Part shown: positions 3,272 through 15,805 of the stretch, one piece after another
Numbering within the stretch: the stretch's first letter is position 1
How the letters are laid out: the number at the start of each line of letters is the position of its first letter
Assembly: GCA_016209725.1 (NCBI GenBank)
Contig: JACQVO010000121.1
Location: 1-17,248 of the forward strand
Reading direction: 5' to 3'
Length of the DNA stretch: 17,248 nt
Origin: Candidatus Methylomirabilota bacterium
GTDB lineage: Bacteria; Methylomirabilota; Methylomirabilia; Methylomirabilales; 2-02-FULL-66-22
The notes under the pieces: model-generated
Told to the model about the DNA's origin: nothing
The model's database searches: none
What the model saw: only the letters and a program-made list of their open reading frames with translations
Translations under genes and position numbers: made by a program

Positions 3272-3299
3272 GGGGACGTTGTTTCTGAAATTGACTTAT
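3272..3299 (+). repeat. 28-nt repeat, copy 1 (left inverted repeat of the transposase unit)
   Basis: Direct reading: ggggacgttgtttctgaaattgacttat. Confidence 0.9.
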
Positions 3300-3351
3300 T
3301 CCTCGCTGCCGTGCTAGCCTCTCGAGTTGATCTACAGTGGAGGCTCATCCC

Positions 3352-4323
3352 ATGCCCCGTCAAGCGCGCCTCGATGCGCCCGGGACGCTCCACCACGTGA
3401 TCCTCCGCGGGCTGGAACGGGGGCGCATCGTCCGGGACGACACCGACCGGCACGCCTTCGTCACCCGCCTGGCAGAGGTCGTCCAGGCGACCGGGACCAC
3501 GGTGTATGCCTGGGCTCTTCTCCCGAATCATGCCCACCTGCTCCTCCGGAGCGGGAGGGCCGGCCTCCCGACCGTGATGCGGCGGCTGCTCACCGGCTAC
3601 GCCCTCACCTTCAACCGCCGCCACCGCCGGATCGGACACGTCTTCCAAAACCGCTACAAGTCCATCGTGGTGGAAGAGGACCCGTACTTTCGCGAACTGG
3701 TGCGCTACATTCACCTCAATCCCCTCCGCGCCGGCCTGGTGTCTGACCTCGTGGCGCTCGCGCGCTACCCCTGGAGTGGGCATGGCGGCCTGCTCGGCCG
3801 CGTCCCCCAGCCCTGGCTGGCGGCGCCGGCCGTCCTGCGCTGGTTCGGCAGAGCCGCCCGGCAAGCGCGGCAAGCCTACAGCCGGTATGTGGCCGAGGGG
3901 AGGGCGCTTGGCCGCCGCCCCGAGCTGGTCGGCGGGGGCTTGGTGCGCTCTGCGGGCGGCTGGGCCGTCGTGCAGGCCTGGCGCCGGCGGGGGGAGGCCG
4001 TCGCCGCAGACCCGCGGATCCTGGGGACAGGCGAGTTCGTCGAGCGCGTCGTGGCCGAGGCGGACCCGCGGCATCGCCCGGCACCCAGGGGCCGGCGGCC
4101 GGAGGCCATTGCCCGGGTATTCCGCACGGCCTGCAAGAAAACCGGGATTGAAGAGGGGGAGCTGCGGACCGGGAGCCGGCGCCGGGCAGTCGCCCGCCTG
4201 CGGGGCGTGGTAGCGAAGCGGCTTGTGACGACGCTTGGCCTTTCCCTGGCCGACGCCGCCCGGCAGCTCGGGGTCTCCACCTCGGCCATCTGCCGGGTGG
4301 TGGGGAAAGCCGGGGGACCATAA
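3352..4323 (+). CDS. HUH-Y1 (IS200-like / REP-associated tyrosine transposase-like) protein with C-terminal helix-turn-helix
   Basis: MPRQARLDAPGTLHHVILRG... N-terminus. HUH motif in LPNHAHLLL. Candidate catalytic Tyr in FQNRYKSIVV. YIHLNPLRAGLV is typical of this family. The C-terminal LGLSLADAARQLGVSTSAICRVV is HTH-like. ATG at 3352 is preferred over the GTG at 3337 because GGAGG (3339-3343) sits 8 nt upstream. Confidence 0.8.
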   Translation: MPRQARLDAPGTLHHVILRGLERGRIVRDDTDRHAFVTRLAEVVQATGTTVYAWALLPNHAHLLLRSGRAGLPTVMRRLLTGYALTFNRRHRRIGHVFQNRYKSIVVEEDPYFRELVRYIHLNPLRAGLVSDLVALARYPWSGHGGLLGRVPQPWLAAPAVLRWFGRAARQARQAYSRYVAEGRALGRRPELVGGGLVRSAGGWAVVQAWRRRGEAVAADPRILGTGEFVERVVAEADPRHRPAPRGRRPEAIARVFRTACKKTGIEEGELRTGSRRRAVARLRGVVAKRLVTTLGLSLADAARQLGVSTSAICRVVGKAGGP

Positions 4324-4347
4324 GTCAATTTCGGAAACAACGTCCCC
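4320..4347 (-). repeat. 28-nt repeat, copy 2 (right inverted repeat, inverted orientation)
   Basis: ataagtcaatttcggaaacaacgtcccc is the reverse complement of copy 1 with one mismatch. Confidence 0.9.
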
Positions 4348-7595: not shown

Positions 7596-8771
7596 TTACT
7601 GGCGGCCGGCGCGTTCCAGGATGGACACGATCACGACGATGATGGCGGCCTGGAGGATCAGGATCCCCGCGTCCAGGGGCCGGGCGTTCCGCAGTGCCAT
7701 GCCGGCCAGCCCCATGGAAATGCAGAGGGCGAATATCAGGAAGACGGTCTTCCGCCTGCTCCTCAGGAGAGTCTCCAGCCGGTGGTGCAGGTGGTCCTTC
7801 CCCACGTAGGCGATCCACTCCCGGAATGTCCGAACCTTTCCCGTCACGATCCTGGTTACCGTGATGTGGGTCATGTCGAAGATGAATATCCAGAAGATGA
7901 GCACGGGGGCCGCGATGTCCATGACGCTGCTCTCGGCCCATTCCCCCTTGATCGCCAGGGCAGCCAGCACAAAGCCCAGGAACGTGCTGCCGGTGTCCCC
8001 CAGGAAAATGGCGGCCGGACGCGTCGCCCGGAGGTTGAACGGCAGGAATCCCAGGCAGCTCCCCACGATGGCGGCCGCGAACCATCCCAGAAAGGGCTGG
8101 AAGGTCTGCGCCGCCACCAACCCCAGGAAACCCCCGGTGATGATGCTGAGACCGGTTGCCAGCCCGTCCATGCCGTCGAAGAAATTCATGGCATTGGTGA
8201 TGCCGAGGAGCCAGAGGATGGTCAGGGCCGCGTCTGCCACATTGCCGGCCACGGACCGCGGGAACAAAGTCAGCACCACGCCGGAGCCCATGACCCCGGC
8301 CGCCGCCAGGAGCTGCGTCACCAGCTTGAGCCAGGCCGGAGCGCCCCGGGCATCATCCACGATCCCGATCAGCACGAGCAGCGTTCCCCCCGCCATGATG
8401 GCCATGACCTGCTGATCCAGGATCGAGTTGGCCAGGATGGAGATCCCGAAGGCCGTATAGATGGCCAGGCCTCCGAGGAGGGGCGTCGGCTCCGTGTGGA
8501 CTTTTCGCGAGGCCGGGAAGTCGAGCACCTGCAGCAGGGAGGCGATGCGGATGACCAGGGGGGTGAACCCGAAGGAAATGAGTCCCGACACCACGAGAAT
8601 GTACAGCCAGCGGGCACCCGACATGTGCCACGTGGTCCGGACGCCGGGAAGCAAGAGAGCGCCCGCCAGCCCCAGGCTGAGGAGGCTGATCCACAGCGGG
8701 TACCGGGCGATGCCGCCTTGGGCGGGAACCGCGGGCGGCCCGATGGCCGCCCGGCTCCCCGACTGACTCAT
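7596..8771 (-). CDS. MraY/WecA-family polyprenyl-phosphate N-acetylhexosamine-1-phosphate transferase (initiating transferase)
   Basis: Multi-TM protein with NAMNFFDGMDGLA and IFLGDTGSTFLGF motifs. The start is trimmed to the ATG at 8771, which overlaps the upstream DegT stop as ATGA. The Arg/Pro-rich extension up to 9062 is out-of-frame reading of the DegT gene. Confidence 0.85.
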   Translation of the reverse strand: MSQSGSRAAIGPPAVPAQGGIARYPLWISLLSLGLAGALLLPGVRTTWHMSGARWLYILVVSGLISFGFTPLVIRIASLLQVLDFPASRKVHTEPTPLLGGLAIYTAFGISILANSILDQQVMAIMAGGTLLVLIGIVDDARGAPAWLKLVTQLLAAAGVMGSGVVLTLFPRSVAGNVADAALTILWLLGITNAMNFFDGMDGLATGLSIITGGFLGLVAAQTFQPFLGWFAAAIVGSCLGFLPFNLRATRPAAIFLGDTGSTFLGFVLAALAIKGEWAESSVMDIAAPVLIFWIFIFDMTHITVTRIVTGKVRTFREWIAYVGKDHLHHRLETLLRSRRKTVFLIFALCISMGLAGMALRNARPLDAGILILQAAIIVVIVSILERAGRQ

Positions 8772-9841
8772 CCCAGCACCCGCTGGAGGGCGCGGGTCAC
8801 CAGGGTCTCTTCCCGTGGCGTCAAGGCGGGATACACCGGCACGGACAGTCCATGGCGAAAGGCATGGGCGGCTCCGGGGAATCCGTCGAGTCCCAAGGTC
8901 AGGTGGAGGGGTCGGAAGACCGGGGGGCGGGCAGTGACACCCAATCCGGCCAGGCGGCGGGAGGCCGCCGTGGCCGCCGTGGGCACGCCGATGACGAAGC
9001 GGTGATAGACGTGGCTGCGTCCGGCGCCGGACGGAGGGAGGGTGATGGGCAGGTCTGCCCATTGGCGGCGGTAGCGTGCGGCGATGGCCGCCCGGCGGGA
9101 CAGCATGGCGGGCAGCCGGCGCAACTGGCTCCGGCCCAGCGCCGCCTGGAAGTCCGTGAGCTTGTAGTTGAACCGCATCCGGTGCTGCCGGCGTTCGTCG
9201 TACTCCCGCCGGTCCCGCATGCGAGCCACGAGGCGCGGGTCGCGACTGAGCAGCATCCCCCCTTCGCCGGTCGTCAGCAATTTGGTCGCGTAGAACGAGA
9301 CGATGCTGGCGCTTCCGAAGGCACCGACGGGCCGTCCTCGATACCGGGCGCCGAAGGCCTGGGCGCAGTCCTCGATCAGGGGAATGCCGAGGGCGAGGAG
9401 ACCCTCCAGATCCGCGGGGAGACCGAACTGGTGGGGAACGATGACGGCGCGGGTCCGCCGCGTGAGCCGCCGCCGGACGTCGGCGGGATCCAGGTTATAG
9501 GTGGCCGGGTCCACATCCGCCAGACGGGCAGTGGCCCCGACGTACTGCACGGCGTGCAAGGGGGCCACGCAGACATAGCTCGGCAGGATCACCTCATCGC
9601 CCGGACCGATGCCCAATCCCAGGAGGGCCAGGTGCAGGGCGGCGGTTCCCGAGCTGACCGCCAGGCCGGGCGGGAGCCCCAAGCACTCGCCAACCTCGGC
9701 CTCGAAACCGGCCACCTCGGCCCCCTGCGCCAGGGCCCCGCTTGCGACCACGCGGGCCACGGCCCGCACGTCGGCGGCAGTGATCCAGGGGCGAGAGTGC
9801 GGAACACACTCAGGCGACTTGGCAGTCCGGCGATCTGGCAA
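8768..9841 (-). CDS. DegT/DnrJ/EryC1/StrS-family PLP-dependent sugar aminotransferase
   Basis: HSRPWIT..., SSGTAALHLAL, PSYVCVAPLHAV, DCAQAFGA, SFYATKLLTTGEGGML (PLP lysine context). The only in-frame start is the TTG at 9841, which lies inside an octamer-repeat block, so the start is uncertain. Confidence 0.8.
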   Translation of the reverse strand: MPDRRTAKSPECVPHSRPWITAADVRAVARVVASGALAQGAEVAGFEAEVGECLGLPPGLAVSSGTAALHLALLGLGIGPGDEVILPSYVCVAPLHAVQYVGATARLADVDPATYNLDPADVRRRLTRRTRAVIVPHQFGLPADLEGLLALGIPLIEDCAQAFGARYRGRPVGAFGSASIVSFYATKLLTTGEGGMLLSRDPRLVARMRDRREYDERRQHRMRFNYKLTDFQAALGRSQLRRLPAMLSRRAAIAARYRRQWADLPITLPPSGAGRSHVYHRFVIGVPTAATAASRRLAGLGVTARPPVFRPLHLTLGLDGFPGAAHAFRHGLSVPVYPALTPREETLVTRALQRVLG

Positions 9842-9850
9842 TCGGGGATC
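9811..9850. repeat. Block of about 5 degenerate tandem octamers (caggcgac ttggcagt ccggcgat ctggcaat cggggatc)
   Basis: 8-nt periodicity read directly from the sequence. Same unit family as 9856-9919 but phase-shifted. Overlaps the first 10 codons of the DegT ORF. Confidence 0.6.
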
Positions 9851-9855
9851 CTTTC

Positions 9856-9919
9856 TAGGCGGTCAGGCAGTCAGGCAATCGGGCACCCAGGCAATCGGGC
9901 AACTCGGCGGTCAGGCGAT
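9856..9919. repeat. Array of 8 tandem octamers, consensus about CAGGCAAT / CGGGCAMC (left arm of the four-helix-bundle cassette)
   Basis: taggcggt caggcagt caggcaat cgggcacc caggcaat cgggcaac tcggcggt caggcgat, read directly from the sequence. Confidence 0.85.
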
Positions 9920-9990
9920 TCGTTCCACACCTCATCCGCAAGCATCTCGGCCAGTCGGTAGATTCGCAGACCCTTAAGACCCTCGGCCAT
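9871..9990 (-). pseudogene. Truncated four-helix-bundle (23S rRNA intervening-sequence protein / Avd-like) gene, N-terminal about 25 codons only
   Basis: ATG at 9990 is preceded by GGGAGGGAG. MAEGLKGLRIYRLAEMLADEVWNE resembles the N-terminal helix of a four-helix-bundle subfamily (..L.vYqLaeeLaDeiW..). The frame then runs into the octamer array (SPDRRVARLPGCPIA) and stops. Confidence 0.45.
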
Positions 9991-10027
9991 TTCCGCTCCC
10001 TCCCATGGATTTTCTTGTCTCCCCCCT

Positions 10028-10067
10028 GATTGCCCGAGTGCCAGAGTGCCCGATTGCCGGTTGCCAG
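10028..10067. repeat. Array of 5 tandem octamers (gattgccc gagtgcca gagtgccc gattgccg gttgccag), inverted relative to 9856-9919 (right arm)
   Basis: The reverse complement of these units (gggcaatc etc.) matches the left-arm units. For example, ccggcaatcgggcac vs caggcaatcgggcac is 14/15. Confidence 0.8.
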
Positions 10068-10070
10068 CCT

Positions 10071-10691
10071 TCAGGGATTGATATTGATGAACAACCGGAG
10101 GGGGATGAAGCCTTCGGCGTTGCGGACGCGGCCCTGGATTCCCCGGAAATGGGCCGAAGACCGGGCGATGTCCAGGATGGACAGTCCCTCGATATTGGTC
10201 TTGCCAACCTGGGAGCCGTGGGCCTGGAGGGTGGCGATCTTGTCTTCCAGGACACTGTCCACGTCCACGAAGACGGAGGGGGAGAAGTTCTGGGTGGTGG
10301 GTCCCTCGTAGAACAGGACGTTTCGCGTGTACCGGGTGGCGGTGATCGTGGAGGTGGCCAGGTGGCGGTGATCCTGGTGGGTGTCGTCGTGATAGTGGAC
10401 GAAGATGAAGTCCGGCTGTGCCTCGTGGATCACGCGCTCGACGCGCTGGATGATTTCGCGGTCCAGGGGGATGGCGGTATCGGGGTATCCCCCCCAGAAC
10501 AGCTTGGAGGCCCGGAGGATTTGGGCAGACTCCTCCTGCTCCCGCCGCCGGATGGCGCCGTCGCCGCCGCCGCTCCCGTCGGTCATCAGCAGCAGGAAGA
10601 CCTGGTGTCCCTGCCGGGCATACTTGATCAGGCTTCCTCCGCAACCGATTTCGATATCGTCCGGGTGGGCGCCGATGGCCAGGATGCGCAT
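10071..10691 (-). CDS. PIG-L/LmbE-family N-acetylglucosaminyl deacetylase
   Basis: MRILAIGAHPDDIEIGCGGSLIKY... is the canonical AHPDD.E.G.GG motif, and HQDH lies downstream. SD GAGAGGTGA precedes the ATG at 10691. Confidence 0.85.
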   Translation of the reverse strand: MRILAIGAHPDDIEIGCGGSLIKYARQGHQVFLLLMTDGSGGGDGAIRRREQEESAQILRASKLFWGGYPDTAIPLDREIIQRVERVIHEAQPDFIFVHYHDDTHQDHRHLATSTITATRYTRNVLFYEGPTTQNFSPSVFVDVDSVLEDKIATLQAHGSQVGKTNIEGLSILDIARSSAHFRGIQGRVRNAEGFIPLRLFININP

Positions 10692-10702
10692 AGGTCACCT
10701 CT

Positions 10703-10734
10703 CTCACGCAGAGACGCAGAAGCGCAGAGGAGAA
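10703..10734. repeat. Arm of the GxxExxY cassette containing 3 tandem octamers (cgcagaga cgcagaag cgcagagg)
   Basis: ctcacgcagagacgcagaagcgcagaggagaa. It matches the reverse complement of 11182-11210 at 24/27 positions ungapped, with the first 15 identical. Confidence 0.85.
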
Positions 10735-10785
10735 CTACGGCCTATTCCCAATACGACGGACACCATCCCTGATGATCAGTGCACC
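10735..10785 (-). pseudogene. Vestigial 3' end (last 16 codons plus stop) of a second, diverged GxxExxY gene
   Basis: The minus strand reads GALIIRDGVRRIGNRP*, against GAPVIKDGIRRIVNRL* in the intact gene 65 nt away. By hand alignment, 38/51 nt are identical to 10800-10850. Confidence 0.55.
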
Positions 10786-10799
10786 ACAGCCGAGCAAAA

Positions 10800-11177
10800 C
10801 TACAGCCTATTCACAATACGGCGGATGCCGTCCTTGATGACTGGCGCCCCAAAGTTGATGAGGGGGCCCAGTCTGTAGTCGAGCAGGCGAAGGTAGGTCA
10901 GGAGCTGCTTTGAGTGAACGCGGGAAAGCTCCTCCACGGATTTCAGCTCGACGACGACGCAGTGTTCTACGATCAAGTCTGCTCGAAACCCCTCCTCAAA
11001 GCGGATTCCCTCGAACTCGATGGGAACAGGCTTCTGACGCTCGACCTTCAGACCTCGCCTCCCCAACTCATGAGCCAAAACCACCTCGTAGACGGACTCA
11101 AGCAATCCCGGCCCGAGTGTGCGGTGGATGTGAAAGGCCGCATCCACGATCGTGCCTGAGATTGAATTGAGATCCAT
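10800..11177 (-). CDS. GxxExxY protein (PD-(D/E)XK nuclease-fold, PDDEXK_3-like)
   Basis: GPGLLESVY is the GxxExxY signature. FRADLIVEHCVVVELKSVE is a D...E.K nuclease-like core. Size about 125 aa. The ATG at 11177 overlaps the WbqC TGA by one nt (TGATG). A GTG at 11180 is an alternative start. Confidence 0.85.
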   Translation of the reverse strand: MDLNSISGTIVDAAFHIHRTLGPGLLESVYEVVLAHELGRRGLKVERQKPVPIEFEGIRFEEGFRADLIVEHCVVVELKSVEELSRVHSKQLLTYLRLLDYRLGPLINFGAPVIKDGIRRIVNRL

Positions 11178-11920
11178 CACCTTCTCTGCGTCTCCGCGTC
11201 TCTGCGTGAGACGTCAACGTGGCATTCGAGCGGCGACCAGGAGCGCCCCGATCGGATGATCGGCAGGCTCTCCGGGCCGCAATTGAGGAGCAAATCTATC
11301 ACTGCCAGGGTGGAAACGAAAGGCGGATATCGCTGGGGGTACTCGGGATGCCGGTAGGCCTGGACCTGGATGGCAATGCCTGCCTGGCTGAAGCGGCTGA
11401 CGTCCATGTAGGATGGGCCGGTCGGACCGGCGAGATACGTGGTGCCGCCCACCGCGCGGCAGAGGTCGATCAGGCGTCCGGTGGGGTCCTCCTGCGCCTG
11501 CAGGCTGGAGGCCAGGATACGGGGGGTTGTGATGCCCAGGTGCTGGCAGAGCACGTCCGTGACGGCGACGTTCAGCTCGCTCAGGCGGGCCCAGGGCCGC
11601 TCCAGCAGGGCCTGGAGGGCCGGCCCGAGGGGATCCCAAAACGGTGCCCGGCCGTAGTGCAGGCGGAGGGCCTGGCAGTGTTTGCGCTGCCAGTCCGTCC
11701 GGGGATTGATCTCCACCCGGTCAATCCGTTCGGGAAAGCGGTCGATGATGGGCACGGTCAACCATTGCCAGCCGTCCTTGGTGCGAATGCGGTTGCGGTT
11801 CTGCCACTCGTGCTTCGTGAACTGGACCGTGTCCAGGAGGATGAAGACATCGGCCGAGTCCAGCTTGTCGAAGTACCCCAGCCAGGGAAGGTAGTGCGGT
11901 TGATGGATGGCGACCTTCAC
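11177..11920 (-). CDS. WbqC-like family protein (polysaccharide-locus protein of unknown reaction)
   Basis: MKVAIHQPHYLPWLGYFDKL...FILLDTVQF...WQNRNRI matches the WbqC-like family N-terminus. GTG start at 11920 overlaps the upstream stop (GTGA). The last about 11 codons (SRRDAETQRR*) are encoded by the cassette arm. Confidence 0.8.
   Translation of the reverse strand: MKVAIHQPHYLPWLGYFDKLDSADVFILLDTVQFTKHEWQNRNRIRTKDGWQWLTVPIIDRFPERIDRVEINPRTDWQRKHCQALRLHYGRAPFWDPLGPALQALLERPWARLSELNVAVTDVLCQHLGITTPRILASSLQAQEDPTGRLIDLCRAVGGTTYLAGPTGPSYMDVSRFSQAGIAIQVQAYRHPEYPQRYPPFVSTLAVIDLLLNCGPESLPIIRSGRSWSPLECHVDVSRRDAETQRR
11182..11210. repeat. Arm of the GxxExxY cassette containing 3 tandem octamers (tctctgcg tctccgcg tctctgcg), inverted relative to 10703-10734
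   Basis: ttctctgcgtctccgcgtctctgcgtgag, read directly from the sequence. Confidence 0.85.
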
Positions 11921-13476
11921 GGGCTGCCTCCGCGCCCCGTCCTGACAAAGATCGGGTTGCTCAGGATCTGGTGCCCGCCCGGACCGCGGACCTCCAGGCG
12001 ATAGAACAGACTGGTCTCCGCCGGGAGGTCGGATTCACTCCATTGGAGGGTGACGGGGGTCTCCCCGCGCCCCGAGTGGACCACGCTGCCGTTCCGCACC
12101 AGGAGCGTCTGGATCCCGATCCGCCGTTCCCCCGTGGCACGGATCACGGCGCGCACCTCGGGCCTGTCGCCGGCACGCAGCGCCAGCCGATCGCCCGCCT
12201 CGGCGGCGGGGTGGTCGGGGAGAATCACCTGGAACTGGTCGAGGGCCAGGCCAATCTCCGGGGTGCGCTGCAGGGCATAGAAGCGTCCCTTGCGCAGGGC
12301 TTCGAGAAGCGCGGCCGGGTCCTTGCGGTCCACCAGGAAGACCGTTTGGACGTCGCCGAATCGCTTGCCCGCCTGCCCTTCGCGATGGTAGGCCGCCTCG
12401 CCGATCGCCCAGGCAGGAACAGCCCGACGGCCACTGAGATAATCGGCCAGGAGCCGGTCCCACCCCCCGCCGGGCTGGGTGAACGTCGTGGTGTCCTCGT
12501 AGACGCCGCCGAAGGCGGTGAACCGATCCGTCCGGAGGAGATCGGACGGGTAGGGATCGGTGTGGATCGTCGCCTGCATCCGTGCCACGGTGACCAATTG
12601 GTGATCCCGCGCCTCGGGCATGGACCAGACCGCCAGGCCGCCCCGCGCGGCGACGAAATCAATCACCGCCTGGTGCGGCCGCAGCCCCGCCTCCGAATCA
12701 TACGGGGAGACCGGGGGCGTGCGAAAGGGAAAGTTGTTCGCCAGCAGGGCTGCCCCGATCGTCAGGCAGAGGACGCCGCAGCCTGTGAACCGGCGCTCCA
12801 CGGTGAACTTGACGTGCTGGAGGCGAACGAGTCGCCTGCGCCGAACCCGGAGCAGCCACACCCCCGGCACCGCCAGTGTGACGGGGGAGAGGAGCCACAG
12901 GCTTCCAAGACCCCAATGGGCGGCGTTGGCGTTTCCGACGACGGGGAGGTCCCGGTAATCCTCGGGCCGATTCAGGCCGAGGACCAGGATGTTCTTCTGC
13001 CCGTTATACATCGTCAGCGTGCCCTGGAACAGGTTGCCCGTCCAATAATAGTGCGGGATCACCTCCGCGCCGGGAATGAGGACCACATCCTGCTGGCGGG
13101 CATTGGCGGCCCGGACTGCATCCAGGAACGGTTCGGGTCCCTGGCTCATGAGCGAGGGGTATTCCACCCGGTAGCGCAGGAGGTTCCGGAGAGGGGGCAG
13201 CCCGTATTCAAAGCGCTGCAGGTGATTCTCGGTCAGGAAGATGGCATCGACCCCCACGACGCGCGCACGGGCCACCAGTCCGTCGAGGGTGAAATCGCCG
13301 GAGCTCCACGTGGTGTGCGCGTGCACGACGGCGGGGATCGGGCGCAGGGGGCCGGCAGCGTGAAGCGGTGTGGCCGCCAGCATGACCAGACCCATCGCCA
13401 GCCCCAGATATGCGACTCTCCGTCCGGTCCGGCGTCCTAACCCCCATTCGAAATTCCTTGGCGACCTTGGCGTCAT
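11917..13476 (-). CDS. Membrane-anchored PHP-domain-like metal-dependent phosphoesterase (tentative)
   Basis: N-terminal signal/anchor (RRTGRRVAYLGLAMGLVMLAATPLHA). VVHAHTTWSSGDFTLDGLVARARVVGVDAIFLTENH resembles the PHP H.H...S.D motif block. Internal hydrophobic segments near LGSLWLLSPVTLAVPGVWLL and CGVLCLTIGAALL. No clear SD, so the start is uncertain. Confidence 0.5.
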   Translation of the reverse strand: MTPRSPRNFEWGLGRRTGRRVAYLGLAMGLVMLAATPLHAAGPLRPIPAVVHAHTTWSSGDFTLDGLVARARVVGVDAIFLTENHLQRFEYGLPPLRNLLRYRVEYPSLMSQGPEPFLDAVRAANARQQDVVLIPGAEVIPHYYWTGNLFQGTLTMYNGQKNILVLGLNRPEDYRDLPVVGNANAAHWGLGSLWLLSPVTLAVPGVWLLRVRRRRLVRLQHVKFTVERRFTGCGVLCLTIGAALLANNFPFRTPPVSPYDSEAGLRPHQAVIDFVAARGGLAVWSMPEARDHQLVTVARMQATIHTDPYPSDLLRTDRFTAFGGVYEDTTTFTQPGGGWDRLLADYLSGRRAVPAWAIGEAAYHREGQAGKRFGDVQTVFLVDRKDPAALLEALRKGRFYALQRTPEIGLALDQFQVILPDHPAAEAGDRLALRAGDRPEVRAVIRATGERRIGIQTLLVRNGSVVHSGRGETPVTLQWSESDLPAETSLFYRLEVRGPGGHQILSNPIFVRTGRGGSP

Positions 13477-13516
13477 GGCGGTTCAAGTGTTTTTTCGGAT
13501 CAGGGCTAACAGCGGG

Positions 13517-14655: not shown

Positions 14656-15594
14656 TCAGCCTCTGCTCTCCGGTTCGGCGAATGCCAGCAGGGATGGGGC
14701 ACACAGGAGATGGCCGGCCGTGAGGGCCGCGACGGTGCCCGCCAAGGTTCGTCCCACGGCGGTGAGGCCCGCCAGCCCCAGACGCGTGACGCCCCCGCGC
14801 GGGGAGAGCCAATCGGCCCCGCTGATCGGGGCGTTGTGGATGTGGACGAGCCCGAAGCCAGCCGTCCTCAGCAGGCAAGCCAGGGCACGGGCGTTCAAGT
14901 TGAACGGGTGGAAGATCACCAGGGCATGCAGGCGGTGCGCCAGTCGGGACGGGGTATGCCGGATCATCTCCCAGACAGCACGGTGAAAGGCCCCGTTGGG
15001 GATCCGAACCACCAGGAGCCCTTTCGCCCCAAGAACTCTGCGCACGGCTCCCAGCAAGGCGACCGGATTCGGCGCCTGGTCGAGGACGTTGATCAGGGTG
15101 ACCACATCGAATGCCCCTTCGGGCAAGTCGGCGTCCTCCAACGGCACGGCCTTCACCTTCAGGCCGTAGCGGGCCTGGGCCACACGGCAGGCTTCGATGC
15201 AGGGATCCACGCCGGCGATATCCCAGCCGATGGTACGGGCCATGGCCAGCAGGTGGCCCGCGCCGCAACCCACGTCCAGCCAGCGGCCGGGGGGCCGTCG
15301 GGGAATTCTTCCGAGAAGGCTGCGGAGCATGTCCAGGCGCTGCGCGCTGGCCTCCGACGCGCCGAAGTGCCCGAAGTAACGGTTCCGGTAGAAGGCCTCC
15401 TGCTCGACGGGGTCGGGCTGGGGGCTGGCGACATCGGCACCGCATCCCCGGCAATGGGCGAAAAACGCAGCGTCCACGCTGAAGCCACGGGCCAGATCAA
15501 CCCCGGCTCCGCACAGGGGGCAAGGGTCTGGCGGGACACCGGGGGCATCGTGTGGGGGCACGCTGACGGATCCAACCAAGGGTTTACCAAACAT
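14656..15594 (-). CDS. Class I SAM-dependent methyltransferase with N-terminal Cys4 zinc-ribbon-like motif
   Basis: CPLCG...(21 aa)...CRGCG, then LDVGCGAGHLL (SAM motif I) and FDVVTLINVLDQAPNP. Start set at the ATG at 15594 (MFGKPLVG). An alternative GTG at 15708 cannot be excluded. Confidence 0.75.
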   Translation of the reverse strand: MFGKPLVGSVSVPPHDAPGVPPDPCPLCGAGVDLARGFSVDAAFFAHCRGCGADVASPQPDPVEQEAFYRNRYFGHFGASEASAQRLDMLRSLLGRIPRRPPGRWLDVGCGAGHLLAMARTIGWDIAGVDPCIEACRVAQARYGLKVKAVPLEDADLPEGAFDVVTLINVLDQAPNPVALLGAVRRVLGAKGLLVVRIPNGAFHRAVWEMIRHTPSRLAHRLHALVIFHPFNLNARALACLLRTAGFGLVHIHNAPISGADWLSPRGGVTRLGLAGLTAVGRTLAGTVAALTAGHLLCAPSLLAFAEPESRG

Positions 15595-15805
15595 GCTGAC
15601 GCCATCGGTGCGCCCGTCGCATCCCCGCCGGGCGGTGGGCGGCCATCCGCATCGTCCTGGTCTGTGGCAGACGGATCGCGCTGCCCAGACCGTTGCCAGC
15701 TTCCCCACGCGGGAGCCGGACCGGGGGCCTTTGGGGGGGCTCCCCCGTCCCTCGCTTGTCCGTGGGGAAGGTGGCGCGGGTAATGATGTGGATCACGCGG
15801 ATCAT
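15584..15805 (-). pseudogene. Possible relic of a glycosyltransferase 5' end (73-codon ORF, only the first about 10 codons GT-like)
   Basis: The ATG at 15805 overlaps the upstream GT4 stop as ATGA. MIRVIHIITR parallels VVRIVHIITR at the start of the GT4 gene at 14653. The remainder is Arg/Pro-rich and unrecognisable, and it ends 11 nt inside the methyltransferase start. Confidence 0.3.

Follow-up and report, generated by a model that had tools for sequence, protein, structure and literature searches.

An NC10 (Methylomirabilota) bacterium carries, at the junction of two genes of a sugar pathway that encode a PIG-L family deacetylase and a DegT/DnrJ/EryC1 aminotransferase, a short open reading frame enclosed by inverted arrays of tandem octamers. 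The locus raises the question of what this frame is and why repeats surround it. We analysed the whole 17,248-nt stretch of DNA containing the junction (the window) together with related loci. A preliminary description had divided the junction into an upstream octamer array, a Shine-Dalgarno sequence with its ATG, a short piece of a four-helix-bundle (4HB) gene and a set of downstream octamers; all four parts were located by inspection of the sequence, TRF, a repeat search and the ORF list (Table 1). The upstream arm begins 3 nt beyond the PIG-L stop codon (TGA, 10073-10071). At the opposite end, the longest DegT ORF (357 aa) opens at a TTG (9841-9839) inside downstream block D2, and the spacer before this block holds a TAG stop and, 7 nt 5' of the TTG, a Shine-Dalgarno-like AAAGGA. 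The equivalent start was picked by gene callers in contigs L001 and L005, a GTG 27 codons downstream being the choice of other gene callers. TTG 9841 is the probable DegT start codon, so that D2 would be partly coding. A scan of both cassette-bearing junctions of the window detected neither a promoter nor, at the arms, a terminator; a function of the stem as a terminator was ruled out because neither arm is followed by a T-run. Neither rRNA nor any Rfam family (E <= 1) was detected in the whole window, the other window junctions (15455-15801, 13477-13516 and around 7596) contain no arrays, and an exact look-up of the window's PIG-L protein returned no record.

Table 1. Coordinates of features at the PIG-L/DegT junction and in the neighbouring GxxExxY cassette (cassette 1), numbered along the window.
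Feature	Position	Strand	Evidence or remark
Cassette 1 upstream arm, CTCAC + ACGCRGAG x3	11184..11210	-	overlaps 3' end of WbqC ORF
Cassette 1 cargo, intact GxxExxY / PDDEXK_3 gene	10800..11177	-	PF13366 E 6.5e-41, TIGR04256 E 5.8e-42
Second, diverged GxxExxY 3'-end remnant, about 13 codons + stop	10735..10776	-	sequence; also in L003/L006
Cassette 1 downstream arm, CTCTGCGY x3 + GTGAG	10703..10730	-	ends 11 nt before PIG-L ATG
PIG-L family deacetylase gene	10071..10691	-	PF02585 E 3.7e-28
Upstream arm, about 5 tandem octamers GGCAMYCN (sense = minus strand)	10025..10067	-	TRF, repeat search, pattern test
Relic ORF leader, Shine-Dalgarno-like GGGAGGGAG 5 nt 5' of ATG	9991..10024	-	sequence; kept in L001-L006
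24 remaining 4HB (23S rRNA IVS protein / S23p) codons MAEGLKGLRIYRLAEMLADEVWNE, helix 1 only	9919..9990	-	BLASTP + custom HMM
Out-of-family tail of 39-codon ORF, read from octamer array, ends TGA 9873-9871	9871..9918	-	translation
Downstream block D1, 8 tandem octamers NGAYYGCC	9856..9923	-	TRF + repeat search
Spacer TAGAAAGGATCC, 12 nt	9846..9857	-	sequence
Downstream block D2, 4 octamers, contains DegT TTG	9811..9845	-	alignment with 4-unit downstream arm of full-length cassettes; ORF list
DegT/DnrJ/EryC1 aminotransferase gene	8768..9841	-	PF01041 E 1.6e-80

The ORF between the arms starts at an ATG (9990-9988) and runs for 39 codons. That it begins with a truncated 4HB gene, as had been proposed, is borne out by orthology with contigs L011 and L087-L093, identity over the 24 residues ranging from 71 to 83%: 17/24 residues are identical to the full-length protein encoded at L011:4158-4589 (BLASTP, E 3e-11) and 20/24 to those of L091-L093. 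The profile search suggested as a check on the fragment succeeded only in part. Pfam and NCBIfam profiles gave no match to the 39-aa or 25-aa peptide even at E 10, and the stump was recognised only by a custom HMM of 81 more distant homologues (16.8 bits, E 9e-5, profile positions 4-24), for which it was the sole match in a six-frame translation of the window. Searching the PDB with the peptide by phmmer gave spurious weak matches only (fibroin-modulator-binding protein, NusA); the 30-aa form of the relic found in L001 (P0002), whose tail differs, retrieved only itself from 1.84 billion representatives, and a word-indexed search found only the copies of the same relic in sister contigs. Judged by these alignments, the 24 codons are evidently a real remnant of a PF05635/TIGR02436 gene. 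The core motifs of the family (S-I-G-A-N-I-A-E-G..R and A-R-G-S..E-T) and helices 2-4 are deleted, the ORF running on into the octamer array after codon 24, and for this reason the fragment is most likely a pseudogene remnant and not a functional family member.

Comparison of orthologous PIG-L/DegT junctions, another check that had been suggested, revealed the gene in complete form. A full-length 143-aa gene lies between like arrays in L011 and L087-L093, and its product in L011 matches PF05635 (E 1.5e-23) and TIGR02436 (E 7e-24); across the sister lineages (L011, L087-L094) the intact gene at this junction encodes 127-143 aa and is likewise accompanied by inverted arrays. The relic is common to L001-L006. 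Its Shine-Dalgarno sequence, ATG and 24 codons are kept in seven contigs, with three substitutions, including two non-synonymous ones at a single codon, and gene callers annotate the ORF (P0001, P0002). L001 retains 31 nt more than the window does, and the upstream arm shows an 8-nt difference in copy number in L001/L002; the number of upstream units varies from 3 to 11 among orthologues. Where the unit sequence has changed, the two arms have switched type together, the complementarity of upstream to downstream arms at the orthologous site being 18-32 within a type versus 7-17 between types. At all seven orthologous junctions the arms are kept and the differences are internal deletions, and among the seven there is no clean presence/absence polymorphism with an empty site. 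A heptamer element at L003:650-770 is missing from the window, its flanks being too diverged to define an empty site. An internal deletion in the window's lineage has left 24 codons of the gene between surviving arrays, and the 4HB cassette has been a vertically stable resident of the PIG-L/DegT junction across diverged NC10 lineages.

A metagenome scan with the 4HB protein returned the orthologous junction only, and the breadth of contexts comes from seven look-ups of more distant homologues. Flanking heptamer arrays were found in six of these seven independent contexts, on both sides in five, and the 4HB genes in them are all co-directional with their neighbours. Such arrays flank 4HB genes in L097, L108 and L109, and their number varies even between near-identical contigs (9 heptamers in L110 versus 21 in L109).

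TRF detects period-8 repeats in the upstream arm (10031-10058, 3.5 copies, 85% matches) and in block D1 (9863-9902), where the repeat search places 7 copies in register. D2 is 4 nt out of phase with D1, and alignment with full-length cassettes indicates that it is most likely the ancestral 4-unit downstream arm adjoining DegT. According to the repeat search the arms are inverted copies of one another over 29 nt with 90% complementarity. The pattern GGCRMTCN x3, allowing up to 3 mismatches, has 10 matches (0.08 expected), all within 9813-10058 and without a further copy in the 17-kb window; none of 200 shuffles reached this number. Among 116 loci, GGCRMTYN x3 occurs in NC10 contigs only, at this junction and in one arms-only pair (L011 2130-2152). 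Within the limits of these 116 loci, the idea that this unit type is a generic genome-wide repeat unlinked to ORFs is therefore rejected. When joined by a GAAA loop, the arms fold at -71.5 kcal/mol compared with -44.4 +/- 3.6 for shuffles (z -7.4). The helix predicted, about 33 bp long and interrupted 3 times, joins 10058-10026 in the upstream arm to 9899-9866 in D1 and is seen in both the MFE and the centroid structures of the junction, which over its entire 276 nt folds no better than G+C-rich shuffles (z -1.15).

The same operon holds, in the same orientation, a neighbouring cassette with GxxExxY cargo (10703-11210), with which the preliminary description had compared the relic. The two indeed share their architecture, a small ORF between inverted 8-nt arrays at an operon junction, and differ in unit sequence. 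The GxxExxY cassette is distinguished by the PD-(D/E)XK nuclease fold of its intact cargo, by its octamer ACGCAGAG and by having 3 units per arm; an arm-arm helix is present in its fold too (z -5.6). Sister contigs have lost its gene body by deletion but not its arms, so that the decay of cargo between lasting arms, suggested earlier for the relic, is directly visible for both cassettes. Inverted ACGCARAG-type arrays accompany 72/80 GxxExxY loci from many phyla (score >= 14, 200-nt flanks), or 58/79 by a stricter count (score >= 16, within 150 nt). Unit type tracks cargo, ACGCARAG occurring with GxxExxY and GNCANT-type units with 4HB genes. By a crude ORF rule, 75% and 69% of GxxExxY genes are co-directional with their neighbours; this matches ordinary gene order and makes their orientation uninformative.

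Several known repeat systems invite comparison. Intervening sequences (IVSs) of 23S rRNA that bear an S23p ORF are found in Leptospira, Xanthomonas and Brucella as well as in Coxiella. The helix-45 IVS of Coxiella burnetii contains an S23p ORF, a 28-bp stem that RNase III cleaves at the first repeat, and two to three copies, variable in number, of the heptamer GACAGAT upstream of the ATG; its ORF is decaying and the RNA element is kept (PMC4990558). The relic resembles such IVSs in its PF05635 cargo, its tandem short repeats, its decaying ORF within a retained element and its terminal inverted repeats, which form a stem around the ORF (about 33 bp predicted here, about 20-30 bp in IVSs). It differs in its site, which is not helix 9, 25 or 45 of 23S rRNA but, in an mRNA, the junction of two protein-coding genes, PIG-L and DegT. 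Unlike those of the Coxiella IVS, its units are octamers, one side is longer (8+4 units) and the cargo is reduced to 24 codons; a role for RNase III would here be borrowed by analogy.

The junction also holds, in one intergenic region between co-directional genes, two inverted arrays, each with three or more tandem units of 7-9 nt, as do cyanobacterial STRR hairpins and paired sites of Geobacter. For the STRR hairpin between hupS and hupL, the suggested roles are in the stability of the transcript or in translational coupling (PMC2670836), and STRRs are also reported within the gene for RNase P RNA (Vioque 1997). Both STRRs and the present arrays are inverted, hairpin-capable runs of tandem short units in an operon junction. 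STRRs, however, have 7-bp units, belong to cyanobacteria and were described without cargo, whereas here the units are of 8 bp, the host is an NC10 bacterium and a cargo remnant reveals the origin. The unit sequences may be equal to those of published STRRs. In Geobacter metallireducens, paired 'global regulator binding sites' of classes 1-3 consist of 3-5 tandem octa- or heptanucleotides per site, lie on opposite strands with variable spacing, and occur between adjacent genes such as proB/proA, moaA/mosC and pdh E1 alpha/beta (Aklujkar et al. 2009, PMC2700814). Compared by eye, their units resemble ours: GTTGCTYN and (G/A)TTGCCNN, TCTCCGTS and TCTCCGCG of the GxxExxY arms, MTYCTGA and GTCCTGA of L114. 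Unlike the arrays described here, the Geobacter pairs were read as IHF/HU-type protein-binding sites and were not linked to small ORFs (PMC2700814).

The intergenic hairpin repeats of enterobacteria and Neisseria (REP/BIME, ERIC and Correia elements) also sit at operon junctions, where they are transcribed as imperfect palindromes and influence the stability of the mRNA; RNase III cuts those of the Correia type, and some repeats of these types are deletion derivatives of larger elements. Their arms, as generally understood, are of unique sequence and enclose neither 4HB nor GxxExxY cargo, unlike the octamer arrays. The TAACTGA direct repeats of Beggiatoaceae and cyanobacteria are tandem heptamers, mostly forward and ending just before start codons; almost all are single direct arrays, with one inverted set out of 170, and no cargo is described (MacGregor 2015). 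The downstream arms at our junction, and those in L108 and L097, similarly abut the start of the next gene.

With moderate confidence, we regard the junction as a decayed stem-loop cassette, in which a promoterless S23p-family gene in a polysaccharide operon was framed by a co-transcribed, RNase III-type stem, and whose distal array now serves DegT initiation. As the junction contains neither promoter nor terminator, it would be part of the operon's transcript, within which the upstream arm and D1 would pair as an imperfect helix of about 33 bp, looping out the relic ORF. This helix is likely to be an RNase III substrate or an mRNA-stability element, by analogy with 23S rRNA IVSs, which contain a gene of the same family, a 28-bp stem and tandem heptamers and, in Coxiella, are cut by RNase III. 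The unpaired distal part, comprising the spacer and D2, would supply the ribosome-binding site and TTG of DegT, and this use as an initiation region would explain why it cannot be lost. Persistence of the arrays would probably reflect slippage, homogenisation within the hairpin and use by the host, and not cargo function; copy number changes in 8-nt steps, and the arms have stayed complementary even in lineages whose unit sequences differ.

A doubtful but possible alternative is that the arrays act as DNA, being the ends of a foldback/MITE-type mobile or recombining cassette or protein-binding iterons, with the RNA helix a by-product. The binder might be the cargo's own product, a nucleoid protein of the kind invoked for Geobacter or a hairpin-specific recombinase, and complementarity would then reflect two copies of one recognition sequence or homogenisation through single-stranded DNA hairpins. 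This explanation keeps some probability because an RNA helix under purifying selection would be expected to prefer G.U pairs, and a sense-strand bias of this kind is absent both from 38 canonical GxxExxY cassettes (32 G.U-type versus 31 A.C-type mismatched arm positions) and from a wider set (73 versus 80). The dedicated unit type of each cargo family fits it as well, as do arms-only pairs and tandem multi-copy arms (L011:2119-2239, L003:650-770, L028, L031) and the outer ends of GxxExxY cassettes, (C)TCAC...GTGA(G), which are sharply conserved across phyla. Against it, target-site duplications are lacking: 24/34 GxxExxY cassettes have no flanking direct repeat, with one of at least 3 nt in a single case, and the orthologous junctions record deletions that leave arms and no insertion with a clean empty site. 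The membership of GxxExxY in the PD-(D/E)XK nuclease superfamily speaks for it; no catalytic domain is known in the 4HB cargo, whose cassette has been vertically stable at one junction. The Geobacter pairs, read as protein-binding sites, have IS110-family insertions beside them (PMC2700814). Units of 8 bp, for their part, do not keep step with the turns of the DNA helix and count against it.

It is improbable that the arrays are merely slippage-prone, microsatellite-like leftovers of a dead insertion, without function in DNA or RNA and kept only since their loss would take the start region of DegT with it. In favour are the clear dispensability of the cargo, the drift in copy number and the absence of wobble bias; in Coxiella, moreover, the RNA of the IVS undergoes rapid degradation and was considered possibly neutral (PMC4990558). 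Neutral decay is nevertheless difficult to reconcile with arms that remain complementary after a change of unit type at the orthologous site, and with a design that recurs with two unrelated cargo families in many phyla. Over 79 GxxExxY loci, moreover, arms are more complementary within than between loci (20.9 versus 12.3, a comparison of means made without permutation); in the 58 loci with a self-score >= 16, a subset biased by this selection, the values are 24.3 and 13.5, and 0/2000 permutations were as high. We give very little credence to the proposal that the 39-codon ORF encodes a functional small protein or a leader peptide whose translation opens the stem and couples PIG-L to DegT. The conserved start region and the gene-caller annotation speak for it, and the window's copy of the ORF extends across the paired part of D1, its stop lying 29 nt 5' of the DegT TTG. 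In L001, however, it stops before D1, so no coupling scheme is conserved; the C-terminal part is wholly different between lineages (39 aa versus 30 aa), two of the three substitutions are non-synonymous at one codon, and the ORF is no better conserved than the flanking non-coding arms.

One orthologous site provides a dated decay series, from full gene with arms to stump with arms, and the neighbouring cassette a second; together they demonstrate that arms-only repeat hairpins can be remnants of such cassettes. The 4HB (S23p) and GxxExxY proteins rank with the most abundant small bacterial proteins that still lack characterisation; where 23S rRNA intervening sequences come from has been a standing question since about 1990, as has the function of cyanobacterial STRRs. 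We tentatively suggest, as a possibility less likely than the reading of this junction itself, that there is a single phylum-spanning class of cassette, a promoterless 4HB/S23p or GxxExxY ORF within family-specific inverted 7-8-nt arrays at transcribed junctions (operons, 23S rRNA, RNase P RNA). IVSs, STRR hairpins and Geobacter pairs would be its decay stages, and the cargo would recognise its own arms and drive spread or maintenance. If the finding generalises, several unexplained repeat families would become one type of element, with RNase III processing of the arms or recognition of the arms by the cargo at its centre. Inverted tandem 7-8-mer arrays at operon junctions would then mark cassette sites for annotation, and the start codons of downstream genes may fall inside them.

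The short gene remnant at the PIG-L/DegT junction had been taken in the preliminary description for a truncated four-helix-bundle (4HB) gene. Its peptide had no match among curated profiles, gave noise only in a PDB search, and found itself only in an exhaustive phmmer search. A word-indexed search recovered this 24-codon stump, called as a gene, in seven contigs with the order WbqC-PIG-L-stump-DegT, including L001 (GCA_040961535.1) and L002–L006, whose junctions are ~96–97% identical as judged by eye from the alignment. The decisive evidence on what the codons are comes from L011, an NC10 (Methylomirabilota) MAG in which this operon is also present. Here, the PIG-L/DegT junction holds a 143-aa ORF for a complete four-helix-bundle protein (PF05635, E 1.5e-23; TIGR02436, E 7e-24; record name 'four helix bundle protein [candidate division NC10 bacterium]'), and 17 of its first 24 residues are identical in the stump (E 3e-11). 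The same arrangement occurs in eight metagenomic contigs (L087–L094), with 20/24 residues identical in the L091–L093 proteins. When the window's 357 six-frame segments were all searched, unfiltered, with a custom profile of 81 more distant homologues (51–61% identical to the L011 protein), only the stump matched (16.8 bits, E 9e-5, profile positions 4–24; next best E 1.3). Together, these identities and the profile match identify the stump as what is left of a deleted four-helix-bundle gene, its helix 1. The earlier reading stands on the orthologues and the custom profile, though not on the curated ones.

The operon on the minus strand of the window encodes polysaccharide functions: two GT4/GT1 glycosyltransferases, a 519-aa PHP-like protein, WbqC, the GxxExxY protein, PIG-L, DegT and a WecA-like GT4. 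The 519-aa protein (11917–13476, minus strand) is conserved in the operon and has no Pfam match; its score against NF038032 (CehA/McbA metallohydrolase, PHP-like) is sub-threshold (52 bits, cut-off 80). Sequence and repeat searches recovered every part of the PIG-L/DegT junction exactly as first described. The octamer pattern (three units, up to three mismatches) has 10 matches, all within 9813–10058 (0.08 expected), and the arms are inverted copies of each other over 29 nt (90%).

Features of the PIG-L/DegT junction (D1 and D2, downstream blocks)
Feature	Position	Strand
PIG-L stop codon	10073-10071	minus
Upstream array, ~5 octamers GGCAMYCN	10067-10025	minus
Shine-Dalgarno-like GGGAGGGAG, then ATG opening 39-codon ORF	ATG at 9990	minus
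D1, 8-unit array NGAYYGCC	9923-9856	minus
12-nt spacer TAGAAAGGATCC	between D1 and D2	minus
D2, 4-unit array, phase shifted 4 nt	9845-9811	minus
DegT ORF start, TTG	9841	minus

Comparison of the junctions, in NC10 contigs that are not independent of one another, yields a decay series. All full-length cassettes carry 3–11 units upstream of the gene and 3–4 downstream, the latter abutting the DegT N-terminal coding sequence. In L001/L002 the gene breaks off after codon 24, but a further 31 nt are left, with a stop codon and the CTTTCCC motif that precedes the downstream arm in L091; the window and L003–L006 have lost these 31 nt as well. L001/L002 also have one upstream octamer fewer, a clean 8-nt indel. 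D2 aligns with the ancestral 4-unit downstream arm, while D1, the predicted pairing partner of the upstream arm, is confined to stump-bearing lineages. The last gene-derived bases adjoin ATCGCCTG, which is also present at codons 26–28 of intact genes and equals an array unit, so that D1 may have arisen by repeat-mediated deletion or expansion. The series, from a full-length gene in L011 and L087–L094 to a stump with arrays in the window and L001–L006, bears out the original proposal that the cargo decayed and the arms persisted. By unit, the orthologous NC10 junctions fall into two groups, GGCACTCG/CGAGTGCC and GGCAATTN/NAATTGCC; upstream–downstream complementarity is 18–32 within a group and 7–17 between groups, indicating that both arms changed together.

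The match in architecture to the neighbouring GxxExxY cassette was likewise upheld. The cassette at 10703–11210 has an intact GxxExxY/PDDEXK_3 gene (E 6e-42), with CTCAC-(ACGCRGAG)x3 on one side and (CTCTGCGY)x3-GTGAG on the other; in the predicted fold (z −5.6) the closing helix is made of these arms. The gene body is deleted in L003 (3040–3255) and L006 (530–746), where the last ~12 codons are left, and a single diverged 3' remnant is left in L001 (9180–9330) and L002; all four keep both octamer arms. A second, older 3' remnant within the window (10776–10735) suggests that this site has been occupied more than once. At 11177–11210 the WbqC ORF runs through the upstream GxxExxY arm, its stop overlapping the cargo start (TGATG), so the array encodes the WbqC C-terminal tail; the Pfam match to WbqC reaches residue 219 of its 247.

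The PIG-L/DegT arms, joined by a tetraloop, have a predicted fold of −71.5 kcal/mol (z −7.4), and an arm–arm helix (10058–10026 with 9899–9866) appears in both the MFE and the centroid when the whole junction is folded. The junction as a whole, however, is no more stable in folding than G+C-rich shuffles of it (z −1.15). Scans of the PIG-L/DegT and GxxExxY junctions found no promoter or intrinsic terminator in either, and because of this the arms are almost certainly transcribed as part of the operon.

Scanning a genome collection with the window's GxxExxY protein gave 80 loci from Verrucomicrobiota, Planctomycetota, Desulfobacterota, Acidobacteriota, Gemmatimonadota, Pseudomonadota, Bacteroidota, Armatimonadota and NC10, all from one subfamily (60–94% identical to the query). 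Inverted repeats scoring at least 14 within 200-nt flanks were present at 72/80 loci, and at least 16 within 150-nt flanks at 58/79. Nearly all arms are three tandem octamers, CTCAC-GCAAAG-RC-GCAAAG..., with lineage variants of the unit (GCAGAG, GCGGAG, GCAACG, CCAAGC). Arms match better within their own locus than with other loci (mean 20.9 vs 12.3, all 79 loci); the 58 loci with a self-score of at least 16 give 24.3 vs 13.5 (0/2000 permutations), a subset test biased by that selection. Arms-only pairs and tandem multi-copy arms of this type occur in L028, L031 and L056. There (L028:150–1760, L031:2189–2806, L056:2766–3466), the arms are repeated in alternating orientation at ~110–160-nt spacing beside a GxxExxY gene and resemble tandem strings of arms-only units.

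For the 4HB genes, exact look-up gave seven independent contexts (hemE/4HB, SNF2/4HB/MmeI, T2SS-E/4HB/T2SS-F, RNase III/4HB/GFO, T2SS-F/4HB/pilin, nuoC/4HB/nuoD and AP-endonuclease/4HB/MFS), again one subfamily (51–100% identical to the query). The gene is co-directional with its neighbours inside an operon in 7/7, and tandem heptamers (GTCAGTT/AACTGAC, GGCAGTT/CACTGAC or GTCCTGA/AAGGACY; up to ~20 units) accompany it in 6/7, on both sides in five. These heptamers may correspond to the published STRR units. Near-identical contigs differ strongly in copy number downstream of the same gene (CACTGAC, ~21 units in L109 and 9 in L110, after 1896; AACTGAC, 7 in L097 and 3 in L101), which indicates rapid slippage. 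In L108 (1108–2384), a 4HB cassette with ~20 + 12 heptamers immediately follows the RNase III gene (rnc), a single case whose fit with the IVS/RNase III link is suggestive.

Among 116 loci, the GGCAMYCN unit was found in NC10 contigs only, at the PIG-L/DegT junction and in one arms-only pair. This pair lies at the PHP/WbqC junction of L011 (2119–2157 / 2176–2239; GGCAATNN x4 / CCCAGGTG x5, ~19 nt apart), so a second junction of this operon has the stump-type unit with no cargo. The GT/PHP junction of L003 (650–770) carries an arms-only heptamer hairpin (CAATGAC x5 / GTCATTK x5) whose 34-nt loop keeps AAGGAGG...ATG, nested inside a second inverted repeat (611–631 / 791–811); its counterpart in the window (13477–13516) is a 40-nt gap with two CGCCAAGGN units. 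Elsewhere in the window, a RAYT-like gene (328-aa ORF, 3337–4323, plus strand; Y1 transposase domain of IS200 type, PF01797, E 3.7e-8; NF047646, REP-associated tyrosine transposase, 68 bits, below the cut-off of 80) has a 28-nt inverted repeat at its flanks (3272–3299 / 4320–4347; 96% complementarity). These REP-like ends are unrelated in sequence to the octamers, and the gene is also present in L001.

Known systems share parts of this design. The Coxiella 23S rRNA IVS combines a terminal stem of 28 bp with an S23p (four-helix-bundle) ORF, and upstream of the ATG are 2–3 tandem GACAGAT heptamers that vary in number by strain; RNase III cuts at the first repeat, the ORF is under reductive evolution with a 176-bp deletion in one strain, and the authors concluded that the RNA part is more important than the protein (PMC4990558). 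Cyanobacterial STRRs are 7-bp tandem repeats; they form hairpins at junctions within operons, hupS-hupL for one, with a proposed role in transcript stability or translational coupling (PMC2670836). According to a paper citing Vioque 1997, the RNase P RNA gene contains STRRs as well. In Beggiatoaceae, direct TAACTGA repeats end immediately before start codons (PMC4679880). In the literature found, which is an incomplete coverage that leaves room for an earlier description, such repeats are neither linked to GxxExxY genes nor treated as decayed cassettes.

What DISCRIMINATES the mechanisms is the promoter/terminator scan together with arm-mismatch types, target-site duplications and empty sites. 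No target-site duplications flank the cassettes and comparison of sister-contig junctions found no clean empty site, which speaks against transposition of the ordinary DDE type. Over 38 canonical GxxExxY cassettes, 32 mismatched arm positions are G.U-type and 31 A.C-type (73 and 80 in a wider set), and so bear no signature of selection for sense-RNA pairing. Arm complementarity could be kept by RNA-level selection too weak to show in this comparison, by DNA-hairpin homogenisation, or by a protein reading the same units on both sides. Geobacter metallireducens has 24 + 21 + 8 pairs of opposite-strand sites between adjacent genes, each with 3–5 tandem octa- or heptanucleotides (GTTGCTYN, TCTCCGTS, MTYCTGA), which its authors read as IHF/HU-type 'global regulator binding sites' (PMC2700814); by eye, the units resemble the 4HB-type and GxxExxY-type arms here. 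That the arrays act primarily at the DNA level seems to us less likely than the RNA-level reading below, and the little weight left is shared by their neutral persistence and a leader-peptide role.

We lean, somewhat beyond even chances, towards a decayed cassette that still works in the RNA. The arms would pair in the operon transcript as a ~33-bp helix, a length typical of RNase III substrates, looping out the stump, and the spacer and D2 would remain single-stranded and supply AAAGGA-N7-TTG as the DegT initiation region. In the full-length relatives, too, the downstream arm adjoins the start of DegT; GGAG and GTG are found within its CGGAGTGC units. As to what the element is, the comparisons support well a vertically inherited, decayed four-helix-bundle cassette of IVS/STRR design, residing in an NC10 mRNA junction.
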